Shown: piece by piece, positions 3,950-40,602 of the stretch
Numbering within the stretch: position 1 is the first letter of the stretch
How the letters are laid out: each line of letters begins with the position of its first letter
Assembly: GCA_019695095.1 (NCBI GenBank)
Contig: JAIBAQ010000005.1
Span: 25,144 to 89,143, forward strand
Source of the DNA: Candidatus Hydrogenedentota bacterium
GTDB taxonomy: Bacteria; Hydrogenedentota; Hydrogenedentia; Hydrogenedentales; SLHB01
Length of the DNA stretch: 64,000 nt
Reading direction: 5' to 3'
Translations under genes and position numbers: made by a program
The notes under the pieces: generated by a model
What the model saw: only the letters and a program-made list of their open reading frames with translations
Told to the model about the DNA's origin: nothing
The model's database searches: none

Positions 3950-4067
3950 TAGGAGCCACGACAGAGACCTCGGTTATCCGCGCCGCGCTCGGCGAGCGCT
4001 GCGCTACTGAATCGCAGCCGAGGGCGGCTGCGCCACAAGGAGACCCGCCGTCAGCAAGCGCCGAGAG
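3950..4067 (+). repeat. Repeat family R1, short copy B (first module only)
   Basis: gccacgacagagacc...cgccgcgctcggcgagcgctgcgctactgaatcgcagccgagggcggctgcgccacaaggagacccgccgtcagcaagcgccgag is near-identical to the 5' halves of copies A and C. Confidence 0.85.
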
Positions 4068-4302
4068 ACGCCCACTCTTCCGACGCGTGTGCGCATGATG
4101 ACGCACTTTAGGAAAAGGCCCCCTCCGGGTATAATCGCGGAGGTGGGATGGCAGCCGCAGCCAAGTTTGGGGGAGTATGTCGAACCGTACCCACAATCGG
4201 TGGGTCTCGAAGTCTCAGCAGTTGCGTTGTCTCACTTCCTATGCTATCAGTAGCACGAAGACGACTTAACGACGGTCAAGCCGTCAAGCTGTAACGGGGT
4301 CC

Positions 4303-5550
4303 ATGAGTACAATCGAGCCAGAGCCAGAAAATCTCTCCGCCGAACCCGCGCCGGATGTATGTGCGCATTTTGGGGATTGCGGCGGGTGCCAATCGCAGAA
4401 CGTACCCTACGAAAAACAAGTCCAGGCGAAAAGCGAAGCGCTTAGCGCGTTGTTTCGCGCGCACTGGGAAACGACCATTCCCGTCGCGGAGTCGCCAACC
4501 ATCTGGCACTACCGGAACAAGGTCGATCCCAACTTCGGACGCATGCATTACCCGGAACCGCCGCCAAAGGGATTCGAACGCGAGTTGGTACTGGGGTTCA
4601 AGCGGCACGGGAAATGGTTCTGGACGCTCGACCTCGCGGAGTGCCGCATCGCCCCGGAAGGAATGGACACGCTCGTTGCAGCCGTGCGCGCGTGGGCAAA
4701 AGAACGGAAGCTGACCGCATTCAGTTCGAAGTCGAAGGACGGGTTTCTGCGGGCGTTGCTGGTGCGCGAAGGCAAACGCACCGGGGAACGCATGGTCGTG
4801 CTCGTCACGCACAAAGGCGACCTCGACAAGCAGTCGTTTGTGGATACGGTGCAGGCCGTGTTTCCGTGCCAGAGCATCCAGTGGGCCGTCTATCGCGGAG
4901 ACGCGGAAATCACCGCGGCAGACCAACTGGAGTTGCTGTATGGGAAGCCGTCCATCGAAGAGGTGTTGCACATCCCCGATTCGCGGTTCGAACGCAAACT
5001 GAAGTTCAAGTTGTCGCCGTTCAGCTTCTTCCAGACCAACAGCCTCGCCACCGAACTGCTCTACGGGCAGATTCGCGCGTGGGTGCGCGAGTCGCGCCCG
5101 AGCGTGCTCTACGATCTCTACGGCGGTTCCGGCGGCATCGCGTTTAGCTGCGCCGACTGCGTTGACCGCGTGGTATCGGTGGAAAGCGAAGAGTCTGCGT
5201 CCGTGGACGGCGTCTTCAACCGCGAAACCAACAACATCGACGACGTAATCTTCCTGACGCAGAAAGTCGAAGACTACCTTCGCGAGACCTTGTCCAAGCA
5301 AGGCAAACTGCAATCGAACAACCTTGTCGTGCTCGACCCGCCCCGCGCGGGACTCCACCCCAAGGCCCTGAAGCGGCTGATGATGCTCGAACCCAAAGAG
5401 ATCATCTACGTCTCCTGCAAACCCACCGTCTTCGCGGAAGAACTCCCCGCGTTCCTCACCAAATACGACATCCGCGACATGCGCGCCTTCGACCTCTTCC
5501 CCCACACCGAACACGTCGAACTGCTGACGAGGCTGATGCTGAAGGGATAG
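4303..5550 (+). CDS. Class I SAM-dependent RNA (uracil-5)-methyltransferase, RumA/RlmC-like with Fe-S motif and no obvious TRAM domain
   Basis: An N-terminal CAHFGDCGGCQ 4Fe-4S cysteine motif of the RumA/RlmD/RlmC family. The C-terminal methyltransferase core has DLYGGSGGIAF (SAM motif I-like) and VLDPPRAG (motif IV). Confidence 0.75.
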   Translation: MSTIEPEPENLSAEPAPDVCAHFGDCGGCQSQNVPYEKQVQAKSEALSALFRAHWETTIPVAESPTIWHYRNKVDPNFGRMHYPEPPPKGFERELVLGFKRHGKWFWTLDLAECRIAPEGMDTLVAAVRAWAKERKLTAFSSKSKDGFLRALLVREGKRTGERMVVLVTHKGDLDKQSFVDTVQAVFPCQSIQWAVYRGDAEITAADQLELLYGKPSIEEVLHIPDSRFERKLKFKLSPFSFFQTNSLATELLYGQIRAWVRESRPSVLYDLYGGSGGIAFSCADCVDRVVSVESEESASVDGVFNRETNNIDDVIFLTQKVEDYLRETLSKQGKLQSNNLVVLDPPRAGLHPKALKRLMMLEPKEIIYVSCKPTVFAEELPAFLTKYDIRDMRAFDLFPHTEHVELLTRLMLKG

Positions 5551-5816
5551 CTAGAGCGCGCGCAACGTGACTTTTCTATCGGCCCACACCCGCAAGAGCG
5601 CCGAATAGGAGCAGACAAGACACGACGGCCCCATGCCTTCCTGAGAAAGTCGCGCGTTCCTATTGCCTTCTCGCTGCACTGCCATGTAGAATGTACTATA
5701 TGAGGTTTAACCTTACCTAGCACGTTTGGTCAAACGCAGATTTTGCACATTCACCGTTCCGGCTCGGGGGAGACTGGAAAGGCCGCACAGTGCGGTCCGC
5801 GTAAAGTGGGGCAATC

Positions 5817-11718: not shown

Positions 11719-11969
11719 TGAGCCACGACAGAGACCACGATTAACCTGCGCCGCGCTCGGCGAGCGCTGCGCTACTGAATCGCAGCCGAGGGCGGCTGCG
11801 CCACAAGGAGACCCGCCGTCAGCAAGCGCCGAGGGACTCCCGGCGTCGGCCCAAACGCAAAAAACTCTGCATGAGCCGACTTCCCGAAACGCGGTCCCAG
11901 TAGCGCCTCGCTCGCCGAGCGCGGCGCAAGGTATGCCGCAGACTCCAAGTAGTGTAGCTGCTGGCGGCC
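11719..11969 (+). repeat. Repeat family R1, long copy C (~250 bp)
   Basis: Collinear with copy A (3395-3646) over its full length, in the same orientation. It lies immediately downstream of the orphan antitoxin. Confidence 0.85.
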
Positions 11970-12104
11970 GCGAGAACAGTGGCGCTTATTTGGTTCGTTT
12001 ATCGGAGTTCATCGGTGTTCATCCGTGGTTGAATCTCTTCTGGTTGCGGCTGTGCCGCGCCAGGCTAAGGGAATTTCTTCCCAACGTAGATCGGAGCGAA
12101 TCCA

Positions 12105-13073
12105 ATGTCGGCTTCATTCGTGGTCTTCATGGCGCTTGCGGCGGGTCCCGTTCTTGGTGTCGATTCATCCCGCTTTACGCTCGATGAGCGGCCCGCGTTT
12201 CTGCTGGGTATTAGCTATTACGGGGCCTTGGCCATCGAGGACAAGGCGATTGTGGCGGGCGATCTCGACGAGATGAAGGCGCTCGGCTTTAATTGGGTGC
12301 GGGTATGGGTGACGTGGAATGCATTCGAAAACAACGTGAGCGCCGTCGCGCCGGATGGCTCGGTACGGCGGCCGTATATGGACCGCTTGCTGCGACTCTG
12401 CAAGCTTGCGGGTACGCGCGGCATGGTGGTCGACGTGACGGTGACGCGGGGCAAGGCTCCGGATTTTCCGAGCACCATGGCGGAACATGAAGCCGTGATG
12501 CAGACCTTGGCCCGCGAACTAAAACCGTATCGCAATGTCTATTTCGACGTGGGGAACGAGCGCAACGTGGGCGATGAGCGCCATGTGCCGATGAGCGAAG
12601 TGGGCCGTCTCGTCGAGTCGATCAAGCGCATCGATCCGGACCGGCTGTGTACCGCGTCGCAGGGCGGCGACATCAGCGACGAGGAATTCGGCAACTACCT
12701 TGAAACGGGCAAGGTGGATTTCGTCGCGCCGCATCGTGGGCGCTACGCGGGCAGCGCCGCGGAAACCGGCGAGACGACGCGGCACTATCTGGACTTGATG
12801 AAGGGCGGACGCATCGTGCCGGTGTTGTATCAGGAGCCGTTCCGGCGCGGGTATGCGGATTGGGAACCGAAGGCGGACGACTTCAGAACGGACCTCGAAC
12901 AGTCGAAGGCATCGGGAGCCGCAGGCTGGTGCTTTCACAACGGGTCGGTACGCAGCGGGAAAGGCGACGAACGCCCGCGACGGTCTTTCGACTTGCGACC
13001 GGAGGAAGGCAGATTGTTCGACCAATTCGACGCGGAAGAACGCGCGTTCCTTGACTCGCTCAAGAAACGCTGA
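12105..13073 (+). CDS. Secreted GH5-like (clan GH-A) glycoside hydrolase
   Basis: Signal peptide MSASFVVFMALAAGPVLG. GFNWVRVWVTW and YFDVGNERN (catalytic-acid NE motif of GH5-type TIM barrels). Confidence 0.6.
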   Translation: MSASFVVFMALAAGPVLGVDSSRFTLDERPAFLLGISYYGALAIEDKAIVAGDLDEMKALGFNWVRVWVTWNAFENNVSAVAPDGSVRRPYMDRLLRLCKLAGTRGMVVDVTVTRGKAPDFPSTMAEHEAVMQTLARELKPYRNVYFDVGNERNVGDERHVPMSEVGRLVESIKRIDPDRLCTASQGGDISDEEFGNYLETGKVDFVAPHRGRYAGSAAETGETTRHYLDLMKGGRIVPVLYQEPFRRGYADWEPKADDFRTDLEQSKASGAAGWCFHNGSVRSGKGDERPRRSFDLRPEEGRLFDQFDAEERAFLDSLKKR

Positions 13074-24769: not shown

Positions 24770-25777
24770 CTATTTGCCCCAACGGACTTTGTGGGCGCGT
24801 TCCGCGAGCCAGCCGCATTGGAGCGCCAGGCGATCCATCCATGCGGCGGCTGAGAACCCCGCGACGATGTTTCCTTGGGCCTGAATCTGGTAGGAAACGG
24901 TCGCAATGTGTTTTACGCCCACGGCGTAGTACAGGGCAGCCTCTTCGTAAAAGGATAGTGTACGGAATCGTTGATATTGATCCAACAAGATGTCCGTGCG
25001 CTTGGCCAGACGGTCGGGCTTCATGGTTGTGCGGATGCATAGGTTGGAGATGGCATAAGACAAGTCCTCAAGGTAGCACCCGTCGCCGGCGAACTCCAGA
25101 TCGACCACGGCCACCAACCGGTCGTTCTTGTAGATGAGATTGCCGCTGTGCCAATCGCCGTGAATGAGGCCCGTTTCAAACCGGCTTCGCTTTTCAAGGC
25201 TGAGCGCTTCACCCGCATCGCGAAGGAAGAGGGCAATTCGATTGCATTGCTCATTCAAGAGATCTTGATTGCCGCCTTCCATCTTTGCCATGTCGTACAA
25301 CTTTGCGAACGCCGCGCGAGGCACTTCGCTGAAACGCCACATCTGCGCGTCGCGCTCGGGACGCGGGAAATCACGGCAGCATTCATGGAAACGCCCTAGG
25401 GCCTGGGCCGAAATCGCGAGCGTGTCGCTGGACACCTGCATCGGTTCGCCTTCGACGAATTGCTGCAGTTCCAGCGCCCATGTATTCAACTCAACGATAC
25501 GCACCCCTTTGTTCGTGGGCTGCACACGGGCGACGGGAATGCCGTTTTTCAGCAGATGCTCCGAGAGCCGGTGCTGGAAGCGCAACGCGTCGAGCACATA
25601 GGGATCCCGTTTATACGTCTTGGCCAGGAACTGCCCGACCGCGGTATTCACCAACAGCTTTTGGTGCCGGCGTTGGTGCGCGCCTTCCAGCGGTTGGGGC
25701 CGGTCAACGCGTCCCAAGTCGTAGTGATCGCGTATTACCTGCGCGATGATGTCCAGCGAGTCGAGCTTGGTAGTCAC
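24770..25777 (-). CDS. Phosphotransferase-family kinase (APH / homoserine-kinase-II-like)
   Basis: Brenner and catalytic motifs LIHGDWHSGNLIY and VVDLEFAGDG. Its start overlaps the upstream acylase stop by 4 bp (atga). Confidence 0.65.
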   Translation of the reverse strand: MTTKLDSLDIIAQVIRDHYDLGRVDRPQPLEGAHQRRHQKLLVNTAVGQFLAKTYKRDPYVLDALRFQHRLSEHLLKNGIPVARVQPTNKGVRIVELNTWALELQQFVEGEPMQVSSDTLAISAQALGRFHECCRDFPRPERDAQMWRFSEVPRAAFAKLYDMAKMEGGNQDLLNEQCNRIALFLRDAGEALSLEKRSRFETGLIHGDWHSGNLIYKNDRLVAVVDLEFAGDGCYLEDLSYAISNLCIRTTMKPDRLAKRTDILLDQYQRFRTLSFYEEAALYYAVGVKHIATVSYQIQAQGNIVAGFSAAAWMDRLALQCGWLAERAHKVRWGK

Positions 25778-28038
25778 GGAATCGTCAGGACCTTCTCCGA
25801 TACCTTGTTGGCCATCATTTCATCTTTCGTGAACCAAGTCGGCTTCATCTTGCGCTTCGAATACAGTTGTTCTCCCTGGTCCATGTAGTGTGGCGAATCT
25901 GGATTCGCGCTTTGGCCCCATGGGATCACCGTATACGACTCGATGCCGTCTTTGTGCATGAACATGAGCATGGTGGCGCAAGAACCGTCGTCGGCGATGA
26001 ATTTGCCGGGGTTGTCTTTATCCGCGGAACTGCGCACGTCGAACAGGGTCTCGGTCATATTGGAGCCGCTGGTCGATCCGCCGAAGTCGGCTCCGGGAGC
26101 GGGATAGAACTTGCCGCCTCGTCCAATGCGATAGACATCGCCCCAGGGGACGAGCACCGAGCCGTATGCGTTCTGCACCTCGTTGATGGATTCGGCCAGT
26201 ATCGCGAGCATCGTCTCCTGGTCGGTGCCCGACAAGGGTTTGCCGTCAGCGATCGCGGCGGTATCGATTTTGTTGTTGCACTTCATGCGCCAGGTCTTGT
26301 AGAGCACGGTTGCAGTTCGATCAGGTTCAAACTGGCCGTCCCAATCCAAGATAGCCTTGACAGCGTCTGCAAAGCTCTGGTCACTCATGCGCGTCCAGCC
26401 GGCTTTTTCGGAGGCGGTTTTCAAGGCAGCCTGCCACGGTTTGGCGAGAACGTCGTACACGTTTAGGGCATATTCCATGGCCTCGTCTTTTGTCACCGAG
26501 TCGTCGGAGTCCAGCAGAGCAGTGATTCGTTCGCTGCGCCGATTTTGCGTATCCCACGTGACGTTATAGATGTAATCCGGATACTTTTCCGGCGTCATCG
26601 TGCTGCCCTTCATCATATTTGCGGGGCTTATGTTGCAGTTCTGCATGTAGCCTTGCGTGGGATTCTTGATTTGCACCAGGTCTGCAATAGGATGAATCCC
26701 TTTCCACATGGAGGCTTCGGAGGCAGGCACCGGGGCGTTCCAATCGAAGCCGGAAGGCCGAATCGGCGTGCGGCCGTTGCGCACGTACTGAATGTTCCCT
26801 TCTCTGTCGGCAAACATCAGGTTCTGGTCCATGAGCTGTAGCATGCCAGCCGCTTCATAGAACTCGTCGCAATTCTTCGCGAGACACATCTTGTAGGATT
26901 GCTCGAAGACTCCTGTTTCCTTGAAGTACGGCGATGCCGCCACATAGGCAATCCCTGCCTCGGCGTCGAGATCCATAACGGGCCCCAATTCCGTATCCGT
27001 CGTGGGCTGTTGTATTGCCGCTTCACCCTTGACCTCGATGTTCAGCATACGAAGCTTTGCGGGGTGCCATTCCCCGTTGAGCTCGTATTTTGGGCTTGCC
27101 ATATTCGACAGGTCGACTTTGATCTCATAGACGTCGCCTGTATCTGGGCCGCCCGTTGTGGGAGCCCAACCGACGCTCTCGGTATGGCCAAATGCCATAA
27201 TCGGGGAACCGACGAGGAAGAACCCGTTCATGTGTAGCTTTGCGCCGTGTACGCGCGCCTCGTAGAAAACAGAAAGCCCTTCCCACGAGACGTGAGGATC
27301 GGTGAGGAGTATCGCGCTTCCATCTGCGCTTCGCGATGGCGAAACCGACCATTCGTTTGACGCGCCTGTTCTCTTCTTCTTGTGCTCGAGGTCGCCGAAC
27401 ACATTGCCAATTGGCCACCGCAGGATCATGGCGCGCCCGACGGCGGCACACTGCCATCCTTCCAGCTCAATTGCCCAATCGGGGGCAGGGGCGGGATTTT
27501 CCGCGATATACGCCTTGACTCCAGCCATGAAGCTTTCGCCCAGTGCGGTAAGCTCAGACGGGGCGTCATCCCAGTAGTTCTGGCATATTCCAGCATTATC
27601 GACAAGCTGCATCGCTTGGTCGCCCATTTTGGCGTCTTTACCGAAGTACTTCGCGGCACTGCCGCATGCGATGCGGATGTTTGCGTACATATCCGCGAGG
27701 CGATCCTCTGCTTGCGCATAACCGAGTCCGTAGGCGGCGGCTTCGTCGGAATCGGCATAGATATGGGGAACGCCCCAGGTGTCGCGGTAAATGGTGACGG
27801 TTTTCGCGGAGGGTTTCGGCGCTTCAGGTGCTGGAGCAGGAACGGGCTCAGCCGCTGGCGGTGCTACCGGCGCGCTGGGCTGGGAAGGGGGTGGTGTCTC
27901 TGAAGAAGGTTTTCCACAGCCTTGCCATCCCAGCACCACAAGAAATGCGCATAATCCGAGCGATACCTTGAGTCTCATGAGGAATCTCCAAAATTGCATG
28001 ATCTTACCGTGCGTCCTAAGCCATACCCCGAATGCCAA
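25774..28038 (-). CDS. Penicillin-acylase-family Ntn hydrolase (possible AHL/penicillin acylase), secreted or lipoprotein
   Basis: Signal peptide ending LGWQGCG. Beta-subunit N-terminus SNEWSVS...ILLTDPHVSW (the Ser-Asn nucleophile context of penicillin amidases). About 750 aa, typical of the family. Confidence 0.8.
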   Translation of the reverse strand: MAFGVWLRTHGKIMQFWRFLMRLKVSLGLCAFLVVLGWQGCGKPSSETPPPSQPSAPVAPPAAEPVPAPAPEAPKPSAKTVTIYRDTWGVPHIYADSDEAAAYGLGYAQAEDRLADMYANIRIACGSAAKYFGKDAKMGDQAMQLVDNAGICQNYWDDAPSELTALGESFMAGVKAYIAENPAPAPDWAIELEGWQCAAVGRAMILRWPIGNVFGDLEHKKKRTGASNEWSVSPSRSADGSAILLTDPHVSWEGLSVFYEARVHGAKLHMNGFFLVGSPIMAFGHTESVGWAPTTGGPDTGDVYEIKVDLSNMASPKYELNGEWHPAKLRMLNIEVKGEAAIQQPTTDTELGPVMDLDAEAGIAYVAASPYFKETGVFEQSYKMCLAKNCDEFYEAAGMLQLMDQNLMFADREGNIQYVRNGRTPIRPSGFDWNAPVPASEASMWKGIHPIADLVQIKNPTQGYMQNCNISPANMMKGSTMTPEKYPDYIYNVTWDTQNRRSERITALLDSDDSVTKDEAMEYALNVYDVLAKPWQAALKTASEKAGWTRMSDQSFADAVKAILDWDGQFEPDRTATVLYKTWRMKCNNKIDTAAIADGKPLSGTDQETMLAILAESINEVQNAYGSVLVPWGDVYRIGRGGKFYPAPGADFGGSTSGSNMTETLFDVRSSADKDNPGKFIADDGSCATMLMFMHKDGIESYTVIPWGQSANPDSPHYMDQGEQLYSKRKMKPTWFTKDEMMANKVSEKVLTIP

Positions 28039-28157
28039 CGGTGACGCGCATCACATGGCCATCGCGTCATCGCTGGCCACATAAACTCGCCGGGCACACG
28101 CAGGCCAGTGTGTCACAATGGTCAGGGCTCGTCAACCGCGTGTGGAACGACCACCTA

Positions 28158-28343
28158 CCCCGGATTTTTCACGAACATACTTGAACCTCTCTCGTAACCA
28201 ATGTGTTTGCGAGACTTGCGGCGAAATACAAATCGGTTCTCCAAAAACGGAGTGTGTTCGCGAGAAATCCTCAAGGCATAACCTCAACGTCTTGCACGTG
28301 AGCATTTTGCGTCGGCGCTCAATCGCGCCAGTGCAAATTGCGG
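28158..28343 (+). repeat. Repeat family R2 copy 1 (~186 bp) with internal 17-bp inverted repeats (ggatttttcacgaacat / gtgttcgcgagaaatcc)
   Basis: About 88% identical to 56184-56369. It sits immediately 3' of ppk, between it and the acylase start. Confidence 0.85.
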
Positions 28344-28344
28344 A

Positions 28345-30360
28345 CTATTGCTGCGCGGAGAGTTTTTTCAAGTACCGATAGGTCTCGATCTGCGACCCGT
28401 GTGTGCTGGACCCATCGCGCACGTATTGGTTCGACTGAAACTCGTCCAATACACGCGCCTTATACTTGTCCGCGACTTGGAGTCCCATGACATCCACAAC
28501 CTGTTGCTGCAATTCCGGATCGTATACCGGGAATGCCGCTTCGACTCGCCAGTCAAGGTTGCGTTCCATCAAGTCAGCAGAACTGAGGTATACAAGGCGG
28601 TCCTTGCCTTTGCCGAAGATGTAGCACCGCTGGTGTTCGAGGAATCGGTCCACAATGGAAATGGCCCGGATATTCTTATGGGGCAGGACGGCATAGGTCG
28701 TGCGAACAATGAGGTCCATCTTGACGCCGGCATCGGCCGCTTTGCCCATTTTCTTCAGGATCTTGCTGTCGGTGAGGTGATTGACCTTGAGAAAGACATA
28801 ACCGTCTTCGCCTTTGGCTTTCTCGCGGGCCAGTAATTTCAGGAACATCTTGCGCGAATTGAACGGCGAGATCATGAGATGCTTGAGCTTGGGCATGGGC
28901 ATGGTGCGCATCTTGGAAGCGCCATCGAAGACTTCGAAGACTTCGTCAACTTCGGCGGCAAGCCGCTTGTCAACCGTGAGCAGCAGGCTATCGACGTAGA
29001 GCTTCCCTGTCACCTCGTTGAAGTTGCCGGTGGAAAGCCCGGCGTAAAGGACGTTGTTGCGCTTGATGAGCAACAACTTGCTATGGACCTTCATGGGGGG
29101 CATGCCGAACGTGATTCGCGCGCCCACTTCGGTGAGTTGTTCGGCGATTCGAAGGTTGTTCTTTTCGTCGAACCGCGCTTGAAGCTCGATCGATACGAAT
29201 ACTTTCTTACCGTTTCGGGCCGCGTTTATGAGCGCATTGACGATGTGGGAGTTTCGAGCGGCGCGGTAAATGCACATTTTGATTTCGTCGACTTTGGGGT
29301 CGATGGCCGCCTCGCGCAATAGACGAATTAGATGGTCGAACGATTGATACGGGTACGTAACCAGCAGGTCACGGCTCTTGATGGTTTCAAGCATTGGCTG
29401 ACGTACGCGGTCCAGCACGGGATGCGGAACGGGCGTGAGCTTCTTAAACGACATCTCGGGACGGTGATTGGGGAACTGCATGAGGTCTCGCATATTGTGG
29501 TAACGTCCGCCGCCAATTAGGGCGTCGTCCACTGTAATGCGAAGTTCCTGGCGCAGCAGTTTCAGCAATCCCGGTGGGATTTCCTCGTCATAGACGAGCC
29601 GTGTCGGGCGGCCGCCTTTTCGTTGTTGAAGAACGCGCTCCATCTTGCGCGCATAGCCTTCGCTGAAGTCGTTGTCAATGTCTAGCTGCGCGTCTCGCGA
29701 GATTTTGAATTCAAACGCTTCGATTCGTTCGTATTCAAAGATATAGAAGACTTCATTCAATTGATGACGAATCACGTCATCGATATACATGATGTTGCCG
29801 TTGGGGAGTTCGACGAAACGCGGCAAGTCGGACGGAATCTCAAGGATGGCGTAGATAGGCTTCTTTGCCCACATTTTGACGGCAAAGTACAGCGCCCCGT
29901 CATTCAACTGGGGGAATGGCTGACCGTCGCGAATAATGATTGGCACAAGGCTGGGCAGTACGTGTTCCCGGAAAAATTCCTGAAGCCACTTGGCGATACC
30001 GTCTGTACTCTTTGCTATGTCTTTCTCGGTGAGGATTCGCACGCCTTCGGCCGCCAGGGCTTTCGTGATTTCGGCGTAGGCAGCGCGGGATCGTTCGTCA
30101 AGCTCGCGCGACTTGTCCGCGATGCTTTCAAGAAGGGCCATCATGGTCTTCTCGCCGAGTTCGATTCGGCGCTGAATACTTGCGACTCGCACCTTGAAGA
30201 ACTCGTCCATGTTGGAGGAGAAGATACCCAGGAACTTAAGCCGCTCCATGAGCGGGTTCCGAGCGTCTTCGGCCTCCTGCAATACGCGTTCGTTGAAGGA
30301 GAGCGTGGAGATCTCGCGAATCTGAAAGAGGTTCTTAATGAATTGCTCTTGCGCTTTCAT
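28345..30360 (-). CDS. ppk: Polyphosphate kinase 1
   Basis: Collinear with E. coli PPK1 (LSFNERVLQEA, MDEFFKVRV, GGRYHNMRDL, VSIELQARFDE, HSKLLLIKR, LSSADLMERN). Confidence 0.95.
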   Translation of the reverse strand: MKAQEQFIKNLFQIREISTLSFNERVLQEAEDARNPLMERLKFLGIFSSNMDEFFKVRVASIQRRIELGEKTMMALLESIADKSRELDERSRAAYAEITKALAAEGVRILTEKDIAKSTDGIAKWLQEFFREHVLPSLVPIIIRDGQPFPQLNDGALYFAVKMWAKKPIYAILEIPSDLPRFVELPNGNIMYIDDVIRHQLNEVFYIFEYERIEAFEFKISRDAQLDIDNDFSEGYARKMERVLQQRKGGRPTRLVYDEEIPPGLLKLLRQELRITVDDALIGGGRYHNMRDLMQFPNHRPEMSFKKLTPVPHPVLDRVRQPMLETIKSRDLLVTYPYQSFDHLIRLLREAAIDPKVDEIKMCIYRAARNSHIVNALINAARNGKKVFVSIELQARFDEKNNLRIAEQLTEVGARITFGMPPMKVHSKLLLIKRNNVLYAGLSTGNFNEVTGKLYVDSLLLTVDKRLAAEVDEVFEVFDGASKMRTMPMPKLKHLMISPFNSRKMFLKLLAREKAKGEDGYVFLKVNHLTDSKILKKMGKAADAGVKMDLIVRTTYAVLPHKNIRAISIVDRFLEHQRCYIFGKGKDRLVYLSSADLMERNLDWRVEAAFPVYDPELQQQVVDVMGLQVADKYKARVLDEFQSNQYVRDGSSTHGSQIETYRYLKKLSAQQ

Positions 30361-30646
30361 GGACGTGTTCCGGGATCTGGCTTACGCCAGCTCGGTTTCT
30401 CCCCAATAAAGGACCGTCGTCATCAAGGTTCGCCGTGCTTTCATGGAATGCATACTTGCTCTGCGTGCAGCAAGAAGTCACTATAACAAATAGGGAGGAT
30501 ACGGGTCATCTTGGCGGAAATGTGCCTGATTCGGGGCTGCGCGCAGGGCTGATCCGATTCTGAGCGCGTGGGTGCAAGCGCTGTTCTCGGCAAGTAATTG
30601 CCGGCCGGTTGACGTTCGAAGGCGCACGCCGTAAACTCCTCCGGTT

Positions 30647-31912
30647 ATGTTGAAAGCGCATCATCGTTGTTATCTGGCAGCCTTCCTGCTCGACTTTGCC
30701 GTATCGTCCGGATTTACGGCGTTTCCGTTCTTCATCTTTGACCACCTTGGGGGCGATGCCCGCATGTCAGGATGGATATCGGCGATTCAATCCGCGTGTT
30801 ACGGGGCCGTATGCATCCTCTCGTCGACTTTTGTCGGCCGTGCGCGAAACGGATTGATCTGGGCACAAATAGGAAGCTTGGGATATGCCCTCATTTTCCC
30901 GGCTGCGATACTTTTCCGGAATCCGATCATCATCGCGGCCATGACGATTGCAGGCGTCACGTGCATGGCCTTGTTCTGGCCGGCCCTTCAGTCCTGGATC
31001 GGTTCAGTGCCGGATCTTCGCTTACGCTCACGCCGCATTGCGCACTACAACATTTCGTGGAGCCTGGGTCTTGCCACTTCCCCGTTACTGGCCGGTCCTC
31101 TGTACGATATGCACTACTCCTTGCCGTTTGTGCTCGTGTTTGTGTCGGCACTGCTTTCGTTCGCTCTGGTGATGTCCTTGCCGCATGAGCTGTCTTACTT
31201 CGGCGCTGCCACGCCGGAGGACTTAAGCTCGCGCGCCGAGCACACCGCGATTAGCGAGGCCCACCTTCATTGCACGTGGCTGGCCAGCTTTGTAGGCTGG
31301 GCGATGGTGGGCGTGATGCGGTCGGTCTTTCCGAAGCGTGTTCACGAGCTGGCCGCTAACCACGATCTTGTTGTACTTTTCGGGAGCATGTCTTGGGAAC
31401 GCCTTAACCTGGGACCGGCCACTCAGACGTCGTGGTTGATCCTGATGCTGTACGCTTCGCGCGTCATAACGACGTTGGACATGGGACACCGGCATACGTG
31501 GCATCACAAGTTTCGAATACTCGTCGTCTGGCAGATTGCGGCCGCGTTGGCGTTTCTGGGACTGGGCATCTCCCACAGCCTGTTCGTGATGGCCATATGC
31601 TGCCTGATTATCGGAGCAAACGGGGCCGTTTCGTTCTTTGCCAGTCTGTATTACAGCGTTGCCAACCCCGCATTCAGGCACGGGCGAACCGCCATTCATG
31701 AGGGCATGGTTGGTGTGGGCGGATTCGTGGGTTCCGTGGCATTCGGTGAACTCGCGAGCAGGCTTGGCACGTCGTGGCCATTCGTGTATACGCCGGTATT
31801 TGTTGCGGTATGTCTGGCAGGGCAATGGCTTCTATTTCGTAGGGGCATGGAGAGACTTCACCGCTCACAGAGTGAGTTGGGAGACTCCGACTCGTCCCGA
31901 AACTGGACGTAA
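30647..31912 (+). CDS. MFS transporter
   Basis: About 12 predicted TM helices. MFS-like architecture of 421 aa. Confidence 0.65.
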   Translation: MLKAHHRCYLAAFLLDFAVSSGFTAFPFFIFDHLGGDARMSGWISAIQSACYGAVCILSSTFVGRARNGLIWAQIGSLGYALIFPAAILFRNPIIIAAMTIAGVTCMALFWPALQSWIGSVPDLRLRSRRIAHYNISWSLGLATSPLLAGPLYDMHYSLPFVLVFVSALLSFALVMSLPHELSYFGAATPEDLSSRAEHTAISEAHLHCTWLASFVGWAMVGVMRSVFPKRVHELAANHDLVVLFGSMSWERLNLGPATQTSWLILMLYASRVITTLDMGHRHTWHHKFRILVVWQIAAALAFLGLGISHSLFVMAICCLIIGANGAVSFFASLYYSVANPAFRHGRTAIHEGMVGVGGFVGSVAFGELASRLGTSWPFVYTPVFVAVCLAGQWLLFRRGMERLHRSQSELGDSDSSRNWT

Positions 31913-31999
31913 GGTACGTCCACTCTACAGATCGCGTTTGCTTGCCATCAGAGTGTAGAATCACTCCTGAGTTTGTAAGCCTATTGGGGAGAACATGCC

Positions 32000-33601
32000 A
32001 TGCGTTCCGTCATTTCCTTTTTCACCGCCGTGCTTCTGTTGTCCGTTTCCGCCGTTGCGCAAGGGGGCATGGTTTCCATCTCCAAAGAGAAGTTTCTGGA
32101 CAAGTGCAAGGGTGCATGGGCGGGCCAGATGATAGGCGTATGCTATGGCGCGCCGTACGAATTCGTGTCCAACGCCAAGCCCATTACCGACCCCATGAAG
32201 GAATGGAAGCCTGACCGCATCGAAGGCTCGATCGGGCAAGATGATCTGTATGTCGAGATGACGTTTCTCAAAGCACTCGAGGACTATGGTCTTGGGATTT
32301 CCTACGAGCAGGCGGGGAAAGCGTTTGGCGAATCCAAGTACGATTTGTGGCACGCGAACTACTTTGGACGCGAGAACATCCGCAGAGGCATCATGCCACC
32401 AATGTCGGGACATCCTTTGTACAATCGGCACGCGGACGATATCGATTTTCAGATTGAGGCTGACCTGTTTGGCATTCTTTGCCCGGGGTTGCCGCACGAG
32501 TCCAACCAGTTATGCGACATCTTCGGCCGGATCATGAACTACGGTGATGGGTTGTACGGAGGCATGTTCGTGGCGGGCATGTATACGGCAGCATATTTCG
32601 AAGACAACGACGTCAACAAAGTGATCCAGGCAGGATTGGCGTGCATTCCAAAAGACTCCGAATTTCACCGGTGCATCTCTGACGTTGTTGCCTGGCACAA
32701 AGAGAACCCCGGCGACTGGTTGGCCACATGGAAGAAGATTGAGGAGAAGTGGCAGGACGACGTGGATTGCAGTCCCGGAAATGTGTTCAACATCGATGCG
32801 AAATTGAACGCGGCCTACATCGTCATGGGATTGGTCTACGGAGAAGGCGACATGACGAAGACCGTCGAAGTCTCGACGCGTTGCGGTCAAGATGCCGACT
32901 GCAACCCATCCAATGCAGCGGGGGTACTGGGTTGCATGAAGGGATTCGCCGCGCTCGGCGATCACTTCACGGGTGGCATCCCTGCGATGGGCGACACGAA
33001 GTTTGCTTTTACGGACTACTCTTTTAATTCGCTCATCCCCGTGTCGCAGCGCATCACGGAGAACATAATCCAGAGCGTGGGCGGTCAGATTACGGACAAG
33101 ACTTATGAAATACCGCTGCAACAACCGTCTGAGCCAATCGTTGTGGAACAGTGGGTTCACCAGAAGGAGATGCTGTCGCAGGCTATATCTCAGACGGAGT
33201 TGAGTCTGTGGAATCCGGCGTGGCGTGTCGTAGCCTGCGGGACTGACATGGAGCCGGGTATACACGGCAGAGAATACGGCCGCACCAACGTACTTGTTCT
33301 GCATCCCGTTGACGAGAAGACACCGGCGGTGATGACAGCCAGCTACAAGGTTGCGTCAAGTGGCAGTCCGAAGCTTGTGGTGGACGCAGCCTCCGACAAA
33401 CGCGGCAACTTCGCGCTGCGCATCCTCGTCAACGGCCAGCCGATGATCGAAGAGCCGATCGACACCAAGGGTGAATGGAAGACGGTCACCGTGGATTTGA
33501 TGCCCTACACGGGCAAGACGATTGACGTGCGCGTGGAAGTGTGCGCGACGGGATGGTCGTTTGAGGCCGCATACATCGCGAAAGCGGCCTTTGAATCCTA
33601 G
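32000..33601 (+). CDS. Secreted ADP-ribosylglycohydrolase-family protein with C-terminal extension
   Basis: Signal peptide MRSVISFFTAVLLLSVSAVAQG. ARH-family motifs (KGAWAGQMIGVCYGAPYEF, DDIDFQIEADLFG, GQDADCNPSNAAGVLG). About 150 extra C-terminal residues. Confidence 0.7.
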   Translation: MRSVISFFTAVLLLSVSAVAQGGMVSISKEKFLDKCKGAWAGQMIGVCYGAPYEFVSNAKPITDPMKEWKPDRIEGSIGQDDLYVEMTFLKALEDYGLGISYEQAGKAFGESKYDLWHANYFGRENIRRGIMPPMSGHPLYNRHADDIDFQIEADLFGILCPGLPHESNQLCDIFGRIMNYGDGLYGGMFVAGMYTAAYFEDNDVNKVIQAGLACIPKDSEFHRCISDVVAWHKENPGDWLATWKKIEEKWQDDVDCSPGNVFNIDAKLNAAYIVMGLVYGEGDMTKTVEVSTRCGQDADCNPSNAAGVLGCMKGFAALGDHFTGGIPAMGDTKFAFTDYSFNSLIPVSQRITENIIQSVGGQITDKTYEIPLQQPSEPIVVEQWVHQKEMLSQAISQTELSLWNPAWRVVACGTDMEPGIHGREYGRTNVLVLHPVDEKTPAVMTASYKVASSGSPKLVVDAASDKRGNFALRILVNGQPMIEEPIDTKGEWKTVTVDLMPYTGKTIDVRVEVCATGWSFEAAYIAKAAFES

Positions 33602-33620
33602 CCAAGCCAGGACGTGTGAA

Positions 33621-34931
33621 TTAGGGGCGTGCGCTCTTGAAGTACGCTTCGGCGGACGCACCAAGCCATGCCACCTGTTCTATCGCGTCGGCTGAGCGTT
33701 CCGCACCATTCGTTTCGCGGACCTGTTGACCGAATCTCTGCGCGCATTCCCGAAATGAAGGTTCTTCGACGACTCGTTTGAGCGCCTGCGCCAAGGCGTA
33801 TCCGCTTATTTTGCGGGGCTTGGGTGCAGCCAGGCAAAAGCCATGACGCACCGCGTGGCGAACCACAAGCTCTTGCTCGAGATGGGCCGGCACGGCCACC
33901 ATGGGCACACCGGCGGCGAGACCTTGGTACATCGTGCCGTTGCCTCCGTGGTAGACCATTGCGGCGCAATGCCGGAGAATGTCTCCTCCGTGAGCGAACT
34001 CGGCAAAGCGAAAGTTTGCGGGGGCCTGTTGCATGGTGTCTTTGCTGACTTGACCACCCGTAGTGACCAGGAATCGATACGGAAGCTTGCCCAACGCTTC
34101 GTAGGTACGATTCAAGAACGTATCGAAAATGCCAGTCGACCCCATGGACACGTAGATATTGGGCGTACCGTCGTCTAGTTCATCCATCCATTCCGGGGGC
34201 GGCGCGGGATGATCGAATAGGATGGGGCCGACCGTATGGTAATGCGGGCAACGCGGCGACGGATCATACAGCGTGGGGAGATCGGGAGAGAGAATCGGAA
34301 TAGAGCATAGCAGTCGCATGGCATTGACCGGCTTGACGCCGTGGCGTTTGTACACCCTACGCCGCATGGGCTCCAGGTTCCAACGGTCCCACGAACGCAG
34401 GTGCATGCGGTAGTACGGATTCGAGTTGATGTGATCGAGGAAGTAGGCGCCCTGCACACAAGCAACGGGGATTCCGGTGATGTAGGCGGAGGTGCTGGCA
34501 GACACCGAACTGTCGCCGACGACAATGTCCGGTTTCTCCCGCCGGATGATCTCGACGTGGGACTCAATGATTTCGTGAAGCGGCGCCCAACGCGAAACAA
34601 AGGTCAGGTCGATCGATGTCTTGAACCAGCCGTGCTTGATAAACCTGTCCCACACGTACGGGTGATTGGGTTCCGGCGCGACGACGTGCCGAAAATCCGC
34701 CTGCCTCACCAGGCTCATCTTGGAACGTGGAGTAGACGCATCAACCCCCACGAAGAACACTTCGTGACCACGCGCCCTGAGGACTTTGGCAATTTCGATA
34801 GGGCGAACCGTGTGAGCCAGCACGTAGCTCAAGGGGATAAACATGACCTTGAGGCGGCGGCCCGGATTGGCACGGGCGGAAGTGGTATCGCTATCGACCG
34901 CTGATGATCTGGCAGCTAACGCAGATTTCAT
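33621..34931 (-). CDS. Glycosyltransferase family 1, MGT/UDP-glycosyltransferase type (GT-B); alternative start at 34844 (MFIPLS)
   Basis: MFIPLSYVLAHTVRPIEIAKVLRARGHEVFFVG N-terminal acceptor domain. A C-terminal UDP-sugar binding region (HGGNGTMYQGLAAGVPMVAVPAHLEQ). Convergent with the ARH gene, with 20 bp between stops. Confidence 0.7.
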   Translation of the reverse strand: MKSALAARSSAVDSDTTSARANPGRRLKVMFIPLSYVLAHTVRPIEIAKVLRARGHEVFFVGVDASTPRSKMSLVRQADFRHVVAPEPNHPYVWDRFIKHGWFKTSIDLTFVSRWAPLHEIIESHVEIIRREKPDIVVGDSSVSASTSAYITGIPVACVQGAYFLDHINSNPYYRMHLRSWDRWNLEPMRRRVYKRHGVKPVNAMRLLCSIPILSPDLPTLYDPSPRCPHYHTVGPILFDHPAPPPEWMDELDDGTPNIYVSMGSTGIFDTFLNRTYEALGKLPYRFLVTTGGQVSKDTMQQAPANFRFAEFAHGGDILRHCAAMVYHGGNGTMYQGLAAGVPMVAVPAHLEQELVVRHAVRHGFCLAAPKPRKISGYALAQALKRVVEEPSFRECAQRFGQQVRETNGAERSADAIEQVAWLGASAEAYFKSARP

Positions 34932-35000
34932 GAAACGTCCGTACTGATATGCCTTGATGCCGATTCGGCAGGCTGTAAATGGATCCGATTATTCCGCGGT

Positions 35001-38000
35001 TCAGGCGTGAATGTTGGCCTCTCGCTCGCGCACGGCCCTTCGAGGTTGAGCCGGCGAAAGAGCGTCCAGCGCTGCCCGGACCTGGATTGCAAGTTCTTTG
35101 GCGTTGGGATCTATAAGCATCGTGATATGGTTGCCCGGTGCTGAGGCCACATCGACGGGTTGCGTAGAATATCGCTTCCAGCCGAGCGTCGGATCTCCGA
35201 AAAGACGACGCAACAGACCTGAACGGCGCGCCAGCGAGAAGGAATCCGCCCAAACATAAGGCAAGCCGCCCAAAACGGCGCGCCAATTCTGGCGTAAGGC
35301 CCGCCAGAACATGACTATTGTGTGCTGCTTGGCTCCGCGCGGAATCGAAGTGAAGAGCTCGCGCGTGTGTACGAATACCACTTTGCCGTCGAACACCGGC
35401 GGGGCATATTTGACGGCGGCGTTGCTCGTCATCTTGACGTTTTCCACCAGACCGTGAATGGCTCCGGGGCCCGAATTCGGAGGCACAAACCCAACCTTCT
35501 TCAACGAATCCAACACGGCCTCGTATTGTTCGTCAACAGGCAGGCGCTTGAGCGTCGAGTACGAAATGTCAAAACGTGTCTGGAAGAAGAATTCAACCAG
35601 CATGAGAACGCACGCCAGCCAGAATGCATCGTCGGCAGTAGCCTGACATGCTGAATAGACCTGCGCTGCCTTCTGGGCGGGCAGCGGGGCAATGCTGTCC
35701 AACAGCACAACTGCGCCGACTTCGCAGCCTTCAGCCTTAAGCAGACGCGCAAGTTCGAGCGCGACGACACCACCGGAAGAGTGGCCGCCCAAGTAGTAGG
35801 GACCTTCGGGCTGCACTGCCCTAACCGCGCTCACGTAGTGCCGCGCCGTCTCCTCGATGGAATCGAACACAACGCGCGCGCCGTTGACACTGGGCGCTTG
35901 TATGCCATAGAAGGGGCGGTCTTCGCCCATGTGCTTGGCCAAGGCCATGTAGCAGAACACGGTGCCCGGAGCAGGATGCACGCAGAAGAACGGTGGTTTC
36001 GAACCGCGCGGTTGAATCGGCACAATTACGGGAACCGGTTCGTCGGTGGCCTGATTGCGCAGCACGGCCGCCATCTGCTCGATTGTTGGCGATTCGAAGA
36101 GAGCCGTCGGAGGGACAAGACGGTCGAACTTCTGAAGGATCTGATCCATCAGATACACGGCGGACAGTGAATGACCGCCCAGATCGAAGAAGTTGTCCGT
36201 GACTCCAATAGGCCGGACATCGAATACCTGCTCCCAAATGTGCACGAGTTCCAGTTCGACCGCATCGCGCGGGAGCACAACCGGGCCACGCATATTTCGG
36301 TCTTCGCGTTCCGGCTGCGGCAGGGCTTTTAAGTCCACCTTGCCATTGGGGGTCATCGGGAGTTCGTCAAGCACGACGAACGCGGATGGAATCATGTACT
36401 CAGGCAGCAGTTTCTTAAGCTGCGATTTCAGTTCGCCATTGAACGACTTGTTGCGTTCGCGCGGAACGATGTACGCGACCAGTTGACGGTCTTGCGGAAC
36501 GTCTTCGCGCGCCATGACCACCGTTTCGGCGACATCCGGATGATCCTGCAAGACCGATTCGATCTCGCCGAGTTCGATGCGGTACCCGCGAATCTTCACT
36601 TGATGATCGGTTCGCCCGATAAACTCTAGGTTACCGTCCATGCGGTACCGTACGATGTCGCCTGTTCTGTAGAGGCGCTCGCCGGGGATCTGCGCGAACG
36701 GGTTGGGCACAAACCGATCTTCGGTGAGTTCAGGGCGGTTCAGATAGCCGCGGGCCAATCCCACGCCGCCGATATAGAGTTCACCGGCGACGCCAAATGG
36801 GGCGGGCCGCATGCGGTCGTCCAATACAAATACCTGCATATTGGCAATTGGCTTGCCAATGGCGGGCGCTTCCGTGCCGTCGCCGTCGTACTGTGCCGCG
36901 GTCACGTAAACGGATGTCTCCGTCGGACCGTATGCGTTGATGAAGCGGCGGCTGGCAGCCCATTGCGCGGCCAGTGCAGGCGGACAGGCTTCTCCGCCGA
37001 CGATAACCGTCTTCAAATCGGGCAAATCTTCCGGCGACAAGGTCTTCAGATACGACGGAGTCAGCAAGACCACGTTCACATTGTGTTGCTGAAGCAGGCC
37101 GCGCAATTCGCGAGACGAGGTGACCGTCTCTTTGCTGGCGAGGCACAAAGTGCTTCCGGCGCAGAGTGTGGGGAAAATCTCCATCGCCGACGCGTCGAAA
37201 CTCATCGAAGCGAACTGCAGCACGCGGTCGCCGACGCTGAGTTTCGCGAGGTCGCGTGCATTCAGAGCCATGTTTGTTAGGCCGCGATGTTCGATCATCA
37301 CGCCCTTGGGGAGGCCCGTGGAACCCGAGGTATAGATAACGTATGCAAGATTCGTTGAAGACGCGCCGGGCTCCGGATTTCGACCATCGCATTGCGCAAT
37401 TGCAGCCCAATCCGAATCGATGCACACCACGCGGGCTCCGCTCTTGGGCAGGGCCGACAGAATTCCGCTCTGGGTGACAAGTACCGGAGTCTTTGTGTCG
37501 TCGAGGAAGAACTTCAAGCGTTCGTGGGGATAGCTGGGGTCCATGGGCACGTAGGCGCCGCCCGCCTTCATGATGCCCAGTATTCCCACAATCATCTCGG
37601 TCGAACGCTCCACACACAATCCAACGACCGTTTCAGAAGTGACTCCAAGAGTTCGGAGATAATGAGCGAGGCGATTGGCGCGCTCGTTCAACTCCGCGTA
37701 CGTCGTCCGTTCTTCGCCATACAGTAGGGCGATGGCATCGGGATGCTTGGCTGCCGTTTCTTCGAACAGACCGACCACGGTACGGTCCAAGGGCAGGCCG
37801 ACGGCCGTATCATTGAACTCCACAACGAGACGACGAAGTTCGTCTTCTCCCACCAGCGAGACTTGGGAGACCGCCAATTCCGGATTCGCGATCATCGCAT
37901 CCAGGACATTGTCGATGTGACGAATGGCGAGAGTCTGTAGGGCGTCATCAAAATAGGCCCGATTGAAATCGAAGCCAATTCCGAAACTCTCGTTCACGGG

Positions 38001-39338
38001 ATTCTCAAAGACGCTCAGCGTCAGAGGTTCCGTTCCATAGCCGGACTGAATCCAGCGCACTTCCGATGCCGTTCCGGCGAATTCGGGCATGTTGAAGGCC
38101 AGGAAGTTCAGCAGAACATCCTGCGCGTGCATGTGCATGAGGTTATGGAAGTAGTACCGGCTATTCTTCAGCGAGGCGGCCGCTTGCTCGCCGACTTTGG
38201 CAACCAGCGACTGAAGGGTGTCGTCGTCGTCAATATCCACCGTAAGGGGCAAAACCCCGATAAAGATGCCTGGTGTCATCTTCTGAGCACCGCTGCGGCG
38301 GTTGTGGAACGGCATGCCGATCGATATCCGTCTGCTTCCGCTGAGGCGATGCAGGTAGGCAACAAGCGCCGCCGCAAACACGTTGAACACCGCCGCGTGC
38401 TGTGTCTTGGCAGCGACGGGGTCCTGTTCGGCGAGGGCTTTGATGCGCAAGGTTCGTTCGATGCCGAGATTGTGCCGCACCTTGCTGACGGTGCCCAGTT
38501 GCCGGACGATCGTTTTGCCGTAGAGGTTGATTGGCTCCACCTTACGCGCGAGTTGTTCGCGCCAGTAGGCGCGTTCGGAAGCGTCGGAGGCGTCTCCCCT
38601 GTGCGAGCGCTCGTATTCCAGATAGTCTTTGAACGGGGGCAGGCACGGCACGCTGTCGAGGGTCCCAGCCATCGCCGCTTCGTACAGATGAGACATGTAT
38701 CCCGTCAGGATGACAAAGGAAAACGCATCGCTGATGATGTGGTGCTGATTCAAGTACCAGCCGTAGAGTTCATCGCCCAGTTTTAGGAGAACAGAGTCGA
38801 ACAAGCGCTTGCCCATGTCGTGAACGACTTGGCAGCGCTCCGTACACCACTCCTGAGTGGCAATCCGATAGTCGGAAGCGCCGGTAAGGTCGACGCACTC
38901 CAGATCGAAGACCATGCTATCGAGCACGCGTTGCTGTGGGGCGCCGTCTACGACTTCGATGATGGTTCTTAGGGCATCGGTATTGTCGACCGCCTTCTGA
39001 AAGGCTCGCGCAAACAGGGCTGGGTCGAGGGCCTGCGGGATGTAAAGGACCATCGCGTTGTTGTAGAGGGGAATAGTGGGTTGCAGCTTCTGTCCCAGGT
39101 AGAAGACGAGCTGCGCACGGGTCAGATTCGAGCGCTCGTAAATATCCAAGCTACCTTCTCCCAGAATCCCCCTAAATGTAGGCGCATATACCGTGTCTTT
39201 GTGACGCGGCAACCAAGTTTCCCAGTATTTTTCCGCCGCGAGCGCGTCGATACGCCCGTGCATTGTCTGTTGCCCCCCCGTCACGCAAAGAGACTCCAAC
39301 ACGGTTCTGGTTCCGGAAGAGCCAAAGCCGCGTGCCAA
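35001..39338 (-). CDS. Single-module non-ribosomal peptide synthetase: C - A - T(PCP) - TE
   Basis: C domain with HHIISDAFS (an HHxxxD variant). A-domain core motifs [17 protein letters not shown] (A3), FDASAME (A4), NAYGPTE (A5), YRTGDIVRY (A8) and [20 protein letters not shown] (A9). PCP [20 protein letters not shown]. Confidence 0.9.
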   Translation of the reverse strand: [1445 protein letters not shown]

Positions 39339-39453
39339 ATTCCGTAGAAGTTATTTTGCCCTGAATGCAACATCGAAATGTTTGCCGTTCCAACCGTACA
39401 TAATGTCAAGTTAGATTCTCCAGAGCAAGCCGGGAGATTTTTCTCGCGCCCGA

Positions 39454-40602
39454 TCATCCTGGCAGTCCAGTTTGACGCTCTGAAAGAACTGTCTCATAGA
39501 TATCAAGAACTTGCCTTGCCTGCACGTCGAGGGAGTAGCGGTCAATAGCGCATTTCCTCGCCGCCCGTCCCATTTCTCGTTCCTTGGCCCGGTCGTCACA
39601 CAGGCTCGACAGACAAGCATACAGGGAATCCGGGCCTCCGTCATAGACAAAACCGTTGACGCCGTCATCCACGATTTCCCGCAGCATCCCCCGGTTGGCG
39701 ACGATGGCAGGTTTTCCCATGGCCATTGCCTCGCGCACCGCGCGGCAGGTCCCGTCGCTTCCGGGTACCAGGAAGACCTTAACACTAAACGCTTTGAGCA
39801 TGCCCACATAGTTTTCGCCGGACACATATCCAGGGAAATGGACGCGATCCGTCAGATTCAATTCACGGACCGGTTGCTTTCCAACCGTTTCCTGATTCGT
39901 GCCTCGCCCGACGACGATAGCGTGGGCATTCTTCCCTGCATCGACAAGCATACGAATTGCACGAAAAAAGTCTTCATACCGCCGATGAGTCTGCATCCGG
40001 GCGACAATTCCTATTACGAACGCATCCGGCGGAATACCCAGCCATCGGCGTCCGTCGGGGACTTCACGAGCCGGATCGAAACGCTCCACATCAACCGCAC
40101 CTGGAACTACTTGCATAGACCGTTCGGGATACCCGAAGGTTTCAAGGTCATGTGCCAGCGCAACTTGCGAAGGCTCCAGGATTCTGGCCGCGGAAAAGAC
40201 GAGGCGTCGCTGGCGCTTGGGAGACCGAAAACCCTCGCCCTCGTAACTGGAGCGGATAATCGGTATGCCAAGTGACTGAGCGGGCCATCGGGCAATCCGG
40301 TGGTCGTTGTCGAGATGGCAGTGAAGAAGGTCGTAGCGGTTTGCCTGCAGATACCTTCCGAGAGCCATGCTATCGAGTAGGTTCCTGAGGGGGTGCCTGT
40401 GTTTCCCCATGCGGAACCGGAGTATAGGCTCAATTCCGCGGTCGCGAGCCGTTTCCACCATGGTATGGGGCACGCCTTCCGGCAGAGGGGGACAGGCGAA
40501 ATCGGCGTCCACGCCGAGCTTACGCAAGGACAGGCATAGGTTCAGTGCGGGTTCGGCCGGTCCAGTCCATTTCGCGTTGCTGAAAAGGTGAAGTACCCTC
40601 AT
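39454..40602 (-). CDS. Glycosyltransferase, GT4 family (GT-B, Pfam Glycos_transf_1)
   Basis: MRVLHLFSNAKWTGPAEP N-terminal GT4 motif. A C-terminal EX7E-like region (GTCRAVREAMAMGKPAIVAN). Confidence 0.75.
   Translation of the reverse strand: MRVLHLFSNAKWTGPAEPALNLCLSLRKLGVDADFACPPLPEGVPHTMVETARDRGIEPILRFRMGKHRHPLRNLLDSMALGRYLQANRYDLLHCHLDNDHRIARWPAQSLGIPIIRSSYEGEGFRSPKRQRRLVFSAARILEPSQVALAHDLETFGYPERSMQVVPGAVDVERFDPAREVPDGRRWLGIPPDAFVIGIVARMQTHRRYEDFFRAIRMLVDAGKNAHAIVVGRGTNQETVGKQPVRELNLTDRVHFPGYVSGENYVGMLKAFSVKVFLVPGSDGTCRAVREAMAMGKPAIVANRGMLREIVDDGVNGFVYDGGPDSLYACLSSLCDDRAKEREMGRAARKCAIDRYSLDVQARQVLDIYETVLSERQTGLPG

Follow-up and report, generated by a model that had tools for sequence, protein, structure and literature searches.

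The DNA directly downstream of the polyphosphate kinase gene (ppk) in this Candidatus Hydrogenedentota genome is found again, in the same orientation and 28,025 nt away, beside unrelated genes, which raises the question of what kind of sequence has come to occupy both places. A preliminary description of the window (the whole 64,000-nt stretch of DNA that was analysed) had reported the pair as intergenic repeats of about 186 bp with some 88% identity, and had considered a MITE-like or REP-like element, a small RNA or a terminator module. Alignment bore out the two repeats, their common orientation and their unrelated flanks, and refined their boundaries to positions 28158-28344 (copy A) and 56183-56369 (copy B). 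Both are given on the plus strand, for copy A by convention; copy A is supported by its alignment with copy B and with a third copy, copy C, that is described below (nhmmer E = 2e-70). Each copy is 187 nt long and the two align without gaps; the high identity reported earlier stood, at a measured 86% (161/187). The 26 mismatches comprise 17 transitions and 9 transversions, involve all bases and run in both directions. Two conserved sub-patterns within the repeat each occurred exactly twice in the window, compared with none expected from 100 shuffles. Similarity ended abruptly at both edges of the element, so copies A and B have no flanking gene sequence in common, and a segmental duplication that took in neighbouring genes, which the preliminary description had set against its own reading, is contradicted.

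Two minus-strand genes in tandem enclose copy A, a penicillin amidase ORF (25774-28038) to its left and the ppk ORF (28345-30360) to its right. Copy A is situated directly after the ppk stop codon (28345-28347) and about 120 nt upstream of the amidase ORF, and its minus strand is co-oriented with both genes. Copy B has a PSCyt1/WD40 protein ORF (54446-56164) on the plus strand to its left and, on the minus strand to its right, an ORF for a NifX-like protein with a Pfam Nitro_FeMo-Co match (56370-56801). The earlier placement of the repeats at the 3′ ends of two gene pairs applies to copy B, which is between convergent genes, but not to copy A, whose neighbours are in tandem. On the right, both window copies abut a stop codon that belongs to a minus-strand gene. 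The GC content of the element is 50-53% compared with 58% for the genome.

Short direct repeats flank both copies. Copy A is bracketed by CTA at 28155-28157 and by an identical CTA at 28345-28347, which read on the minus strand is TAG, the ppk stop codon. Copy B is bracketed by TTA at 56180-56182 and 56370-56372, or by TTAG if positions 56183 and 56373 are counted, and here the right-hand repeat, read on the minus strand, is the TAA that ends the NifX-like gene. These repeats are unlike between copies A and B, as target-site duplications should be. TA is present at both junctions of both copies and the base before it is duplicated as well (C..C in A, T..T in B), which favours a duplication of at least 3 nt. 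With a fourth base included copy B reads TTAG; copy A reads CTAC/CTAT, which is not YTAR.

The two ends of the element form an imperfect terminal inverted repeat, in which the left end CCCGGATTTCTC is matched by the reverse complement of the right end CCCGCATTTCGC. The repeat is short, and by eye the match extends to about 10/12 positions in copy B and 8/12 in copy A. In copy A the left terminal inverted repeat (CCCCGGATTTTTC) occupies 28158-28170 and its degenerate right counterpart 28332-28344, both given on the plus strand; the equivalents in copy B are 56183-56195 and 56357-56369 (GCGAAATGCGGG). The right terminus is the most diverged part of the element, with five A-B differences in the last 15 nt. 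The best inverted repeat is not between one end and the other: what had been described as terminal-inverted-repeat-like arms proved to be the left terminus and its own internal inverted copy. This repeat, given earlier as 17 bp around about 75 nt, is real; it is longer than described, with arms of 21 nt and a loop of about 67 nt.

The site of copy B is empty in relatives. Contigs L016 (Logan SRR14117728) and L018 (GCA_041662805.1) carry the same convergent WD40/NifX-like pair, with WD40 proteins 88-89% identical, and the stop codons of the pair are only 14-15 nt apart, so that both contigs represent empty sites for copy B. At the same locus the window reads as a spacer of 15 nt followed by TTA, the element (187 nt) and a second TTA, and the spacer before the left TTA fits the spacing at the empty sites. 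A three-way alignment of the window, L016 and L018 showed one clean element-sized gap in both relatives. The orthologous site of copy C is likewise empty, in contigs L027 and L028, and the filled/empty comparison covers these two of the three loci. Downstream of ppk, contig L003 of the closest relative (Logan SRR14117728) ends 107 nt after the gene, and this downstream DNA (12017-12123) shows no similarity to the window; the ppk stop codon of L003 is TGA rather than TAG. The NifX-like gene does not follow WD40 in a more distant relative, L017 (GCA_041859475.1), where another gene in the orientation of WD40 takes its place; the intergenic DNA after WD40 (2458-2652) contains a short tandem repeat (GCTCGTCCGTG / CGGGTCCGTG / CGCGTCCGTG).

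Looking for further copies had been proposed in the preliminary description, and a third full-length copy was found. The minus-frame peptide of copy A had one match in the protein libraries, a 63-amino-acid protein (P0241; E = 2.7e-10) encoded on the 6.2-kb Logan contig L019. P0241 is a spurious ORF, called in a public assembly at L019 5329-5520 across copy C, which lies at about 5371-5557 and is 70-72% identical to copies A and B with no indels. Neighbouring proteins on L019 are identical to K1Y02_ proteins (e.g. K1Y02_12790), so copy C belongs to the window's genome, on another contig; the WD40 protein of the window is itself 100% identical to P0121, a K1Y02_-tagged protein encoded on a 91-kb contig of an NCBI metagenome-assembled genome (MAG). 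The WD40 and ppk proteins assign the window to Candidatus Hydrogenedentota and not to the planctomycetes. There are three dispersed copies on two contigs of the K1Y02 MAG, all with unrelated flanks, a count that refers to known copies only, as the rest of the genome is outside the DNA collections searched.

Copy C lies between divergent GGDEF and response-regulator genes, 17 nt upstream of the regulator start codon. This intergenic region is 554 nt long in K1Y02 compared with 361 and 377 nt in L027 and L028, and in the alignment both relatives lack one stretch of about 190 nt at the position of the element. The flanks of copy C are TCA and TTG, so the duplication is not intact here, while L028 has TTAG at the corresponding position. 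The simplest reading of this alignment is a TTA(G) duplication that has since decayed in K1Y02, as the TTAG of L028 suggests, and such decay fits the status of copy C as the most diverged copy. On L019 a bidirectional promoter-like block occupies 5224-5266: one strand has TTGACA-17-TAGTAT and the opposite strand TTGACG-17-CATTAT. The core of the block (CATACTACTAATCATTTGACGGA.TGTCAAT) hardly varies across the three genomes (L019, L027 and L028), and the intergenic DNA around it is otherwise poorly conserved among them. Copy C is inserted between this block and the response-regulator start codon.

That the element is a MITE is well supported by its target-site duplications, its imperfect terminal inverted repeats, the empty sites at two of the three loci and the third dispersed copy, and the MITE-like option of the preliminary description is the one that survives. 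We put at about 0.85 the probability that the element is a non-autonomous DNA transposon of this type, 186-187 nt in length, that was moved in trans by a transposase duplicating a short TA-containing target. As it encodes no protein, it would be mobilised by a transposase encoded elsewhere in the genome, and each insertion would duplicate a target of 3-4 nt, YTA(R), that would have been TTAG at copy B, probably TTAG at copy C and CTA(C/T) at copy A. The three known copies sit at unrelated loci and two of them are exactly in a gene's stop codon. Insertion into the TAG of ppk and the TAA of the NifX-like gene would restore the stop codon through the duplication and thus leave the gene undamaged. 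Stop codons may be among the few harmless TA-containing sites in a genome of 58% GC with very short intergenic spacers; before the insertion of copy B, the only TA dinucleotides between the WD40 and NifX-like genes were in their stop codons. With the interrupted codon rebuilt by the target duplication, the stop-codon insertions would illustrate how an element that targets TA can find harmless sites even where genes are dense and GC content is high. The copies are old, at 14-30% divergence, and so give no sign of current activity.

Bacterial MITEs are non-coding elements of <200 bp with terminal inverted repeats, TA junctions, a target duplication, a long stem-loop fold and filled and empty sites (PMC2229807). 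The Hydrogenedentota element is like Correia/NEMIS of Neisseria, RUP of Streptococcus pneumoniae and ERIC/IRU of enterobacteria in being <200 bp, non-coding and intergenic, and in its terminal inverted repeats, TA junctions, target duplication, predicted stem-loop transcripts and filled/empty sites (PMC2229807). It differs from all of these in having no sequence similarity to them, in not being A+T-rich and in its host, an uncultured Hydrogenedentota lineage. Its anatomy is also different, since the end-to-end inverted repeat is weak and the left end pairs internally, with a structured tail of 70 nt following. In this respect YPAL/RU-2 of Yersinia (168 bp; PMC2229807) is closer, being similar in size, not A+T-rich and furnished with internal rather than strictly terminal inverted repeats, and it too shows target duplications and filled/empty site polymorphism. 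YPAL duplications, however, are of 3 to 26 bp and without TA, whereas that of the Hydrogenedentota element is a short YTA(R), and there is no sequence similarity between the two.

The target sites also bear on the enzyme that would have moved the element. IS5 has a YTAR target and a 4-bp duplication (PMC5009759), and IS711 duplicates TA within YTAR (PMC2266754). With YTAR a documented target of both, an IS5-family enzyme is a reasonable lead. TTAG at copy B and at the probable ancestral site of copy C fits YTAR, with CTA followed by C or T at copy A. PIF/Harbinger-Tourist MITEs, the eukaryotic counterparts of the IS5 family, have a TTA/TAA duplication. A TA target of the IS630/Tc1-mariner type fits the data about as well as the IS5 type, the families being compared here by their target sites. 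The candidate transposase, IS5-like or IS630-like, would belong to the DDE enzymes and prefer YTAR or TA as its target.

No transposase was found among the 36 large ORFs of the window, and the window contained no further end-like sequence. When the window and about 50 kb of relatives' sequence were searched with nhmmer profiles built from two and from three copies, no additional copy emerged. In a collection of genome contigs that does not include the source genome, the 18-mer GTGTTCGCGAGAAATCCT gave two unrelated matches, in Phyllobacterium and in a Sphingomonadaceae MAG, with little similarity beyond the seed, and a 21-mer from the tail gave nothing in metagenome contigs, again a collection without the source genome. 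A degenerate 20-mer from the arm matched metagenome contigs at 10 loci belonging to four unrelated sequence groups, and only 21 nt were matched, as expected of chance matches. Three scans of viral contigs returned chance seeds only, blastn against plasmids and phages returned nothing, and plus-frame peptides of the element had no match in the protein libraries. The element family is thus undescribed as far as the Rfam, plasmid, phage, GTDB-representative and JGI metagenome searches extend, with the source genome itself outside the DNA collections. On present evidence the element is an ordinary MITE, a new family of a known kind of element. It documents a mobile-element family in Candidatus Hydrogenedentota, a phylum that to our knowledge has been seen in metagenomes only. 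Repeats of this sort break assemblies, and the spurious small ORFs that arise on them seed databases with hypothetical proteins. Among the contigs matched by the degenerate arm sequence, JGI metagenome contigs L004, L006, L007, L010, L011 and L012 come from an A+T-rich organism in which a segment of about 200 nt is repeated in at least three flanking contexts. This dispersed repeat contains the 20-mer GGATTTTTCACGAACATACT; it matches the Hydrogenedentota element over 21 nt only, and the link was therefore judged to be chance.

Folding predicted three hairpins in copies A and B, and the same three in copy C. Hairpin 1 (28162-28270, plus strand) is formed by the 21-nt arms (28162-28182 with 28250-28270; in copy B 56187-56207 with 56275-56295), which have one A-C mismatch and enclose the variable loop, and 95% of its cells are paired across the three copies. 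The internal arm of hairpin 1 and hairpin 2 together make up the most conserved part of the element, a 52-nt core at 28250-28301 (56275-56326 in copy B). Inside this core is a CACGTG palindrome, at 28295-28300 and 56320-56325, as the preliminary description had observed for the conserved tail. Hairpin 3 (28302-28341; 56327-56366 in copy B) is a long imperfect stem with GGCGC/GCGCC at its top, and its 3′ half extends into the right terminus. Copies A and B folded better than shuffled sequences on the plus strand (z = -4.1 and -6.2 respectively) and on the minus strand (z = -2.1 and -4.6); for copy C neither strand outdid its shuffles (z = -1.4 and -1.7). Over the three copies, 93.5% of cells in the consensus structure are paired, a figure that reflects conservation of the stems and not covariation. 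The compensatory changes that folding had been proposed to reveal came to one double-change pair, and with 459/500 shuffles equal or better, covariation was not above shuffled controls, in a test of low power on three sequences. Changes compatible with G-U pairing were commoner on the plus strand, the strand on which the structure was optimised and the one that is antisense to the neighbouring genes.

Conservation within the element is far from uniform. The 52-nt core is 98% identical between copies A and B and 88-90% identical to copy C, while identity in the large loop is 50-76% overall and 50-60% to copy C. Only two differences between copies A and B fall in 80 core positions compared with 24 in the other 107 (Fisher p = 6e-5, for a segmentation into 80 and 107 nt chosen after seeing the data). 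Across the three copies paired columns vary less than unpaired ones (24/112 versus 42/75, p = 2e-6, with a structure derived from the same three sequences), and there are no indels across 187 nt at up to 30% divergence. This uneven conservation, with stems less variable than loops and length unchanged, suggests that the element is constrained, whether by transposition or by a secondary role. The minus strand of the element is also co-oriented with an adjacent gene at all three loci, where the order on that strand is ppk-element-amidase, NifX-like-element and element-response regulator. The element is therefore probably transcribed in neighbouring mRNAs at all three loci, within 3′ or 5′ untranslated regions; copy C, between a strong and conserved promoter-like site (TTGACA-17-TAGTAT) and a start codon, would lie wholly in a 5′ untranslated region. 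These observations, together with the predicted folds of copies A and B on the plus strand, could be read as the mark of a MITE that has been co-opted by its host, in which the 52-nt core and the hairpins act in RNA, as a stabiliser of 3′ or 5′ untranslated regions or an RNase target, or as a protein-binding site centred on the CACGTG palindrome, and in which conservation reflects selection and not recent copying. We regard this as unlikely. The covariation and copy C folding results give it no help, the better-folding plus strand is the wrong one for the neighbouring transcripts, and three copies in the same orientation have a probability of 0.25. Moreover, conservation is concentrated in the left end, in the inverted copy of it inside the element and in the sequence next to these, where binding by a transposase is to be expected. 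Constraint in an active lineage thus explains the pattern equally, with no need of a host function. These parts, the adjacent core included, are probably requirements of the transposase or of a host factor. Taken further, co-option would make the element a domesticated regulatory cassette that seeks stop codons, with its core, stems and length under selection and with TA-containing stop codons serving to deliver it to 3′ and 5′ untranslated regions, where, as a functional RNA or DNA module, it might for example stabilise mRNA ends, be a target for an RNase or bind a regulator. This too seems improbable to us. A functional core would nevertheless provide a compact example of a regulatory sequence spread by transposition.

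The readings that dispense with transposition fare worse against an element with precise insertions and empty sites. Stable predicted folds and intergenic locations are what a multi-copy small RNA gene or a cis-regulatory RNA family would show, had it spread by ordinary duplication, but the flanking direct repeats and the empty sites in relatives largely refute such a family, and we consider it very improbable. No sigma-70 promoter match was found inside the element, which also lacks terminator-like signals; Rfam 15 gave no gathering-score match in the window and none of relevance at E <=10 for copies A and B or at E <=1 for copy C, and together with the covariation result this leaves the small RNA option of the preliminary description unsupported. 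Hairpins directly after two stop codons recall a REP/BIME-type palindromic unit or an intrinsic terminator module common to the 3′ ends of genes. REP and BIME sequences are palindromic units of 20-40 nt with no target duplication; this element, at 187 nt with three hairpins, is far larger and differently built, and it does have a target duplication. No hairpin followed by a T-run was present on either strand at the copy A or copy B locus, and copy C is upstream of a start codon and not at a 3′ end, so that both the REP-like and the terminator options put forward earlier are unsupported and retain hardly any probability. The direct orientation and spacing of the window copies might also be those of attL and attR around an integrated island of 28 kb, or of a segmental duplication. 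This reading is already refuted. Attachment repeats start identical, and these are only 86% identical; the interval holds the core genes ppk, SMC, RNase Y and YmdB and an NRPS gene, with no integrase or transposase; and the 12 kb adjoining copy A (28350-40331) are colinear with the relative L003. The copies are independent small insertions, each flanked by a duplication of its own, and a duplicated segment is at odds with the third copy on another contig as well as with similarity that stops before the flanks.

Some further candidates were considered and rejected. As the preliminary description had held, peptides read across the element are conserved only through the DNA. Of the six frames, four contain stop codons in both A and B, and one more is broken in copy B; a single plus-strand frame is open in both copies, and its translations differ at many amino acids. 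In the frame of the P0241 ORF, which is the one broken in copy B, all five core substitutions of copy C change the amino acid. A protein-coding small ORF was rejected on these non-synonymous substitutions and on the start and stop codons, which are not conserved among the copies. The ATG-initiated plus-strand ORFs over the element run from 28118 to 28381 (87 amino acids) and from 56092 to 56373 (93 amino acids). Integration linked to a tRNA was rejected, with no tRNA found in the window or in L019. A guide of the IS110 bridge-RNA type was sought as complementarity between the variable loop of each window copy and the flanks of that copy, and was rejected: copy A had no such match, and copy B had one 9-mer (about 0.05 expected by chance in each copy). 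A DGR TR/VR pair was dismissed because the mismatches are not confined to adenines and both window copies are intergenic. DGR repeats, integron attC sites and island att sites were, as a group, at odds with the mismatch pattern, the symmetry of the ends or the gene content.

The window also contains a second, unrelated and GC-rich repeat family, with copies at 3424-3645, 3980-4073 and 11748-11969 that are 92-98% identical and have internal palindromes. In the same part of the window a 58-nt inverted pair (3743-3800 and 12009-12066) flanks about 8.2 kb, and the genes within this interval look ordinary, among them those for a tRNA methyltransferase-like protein, a CarboxypepD_reg protein and HEAT repeats.
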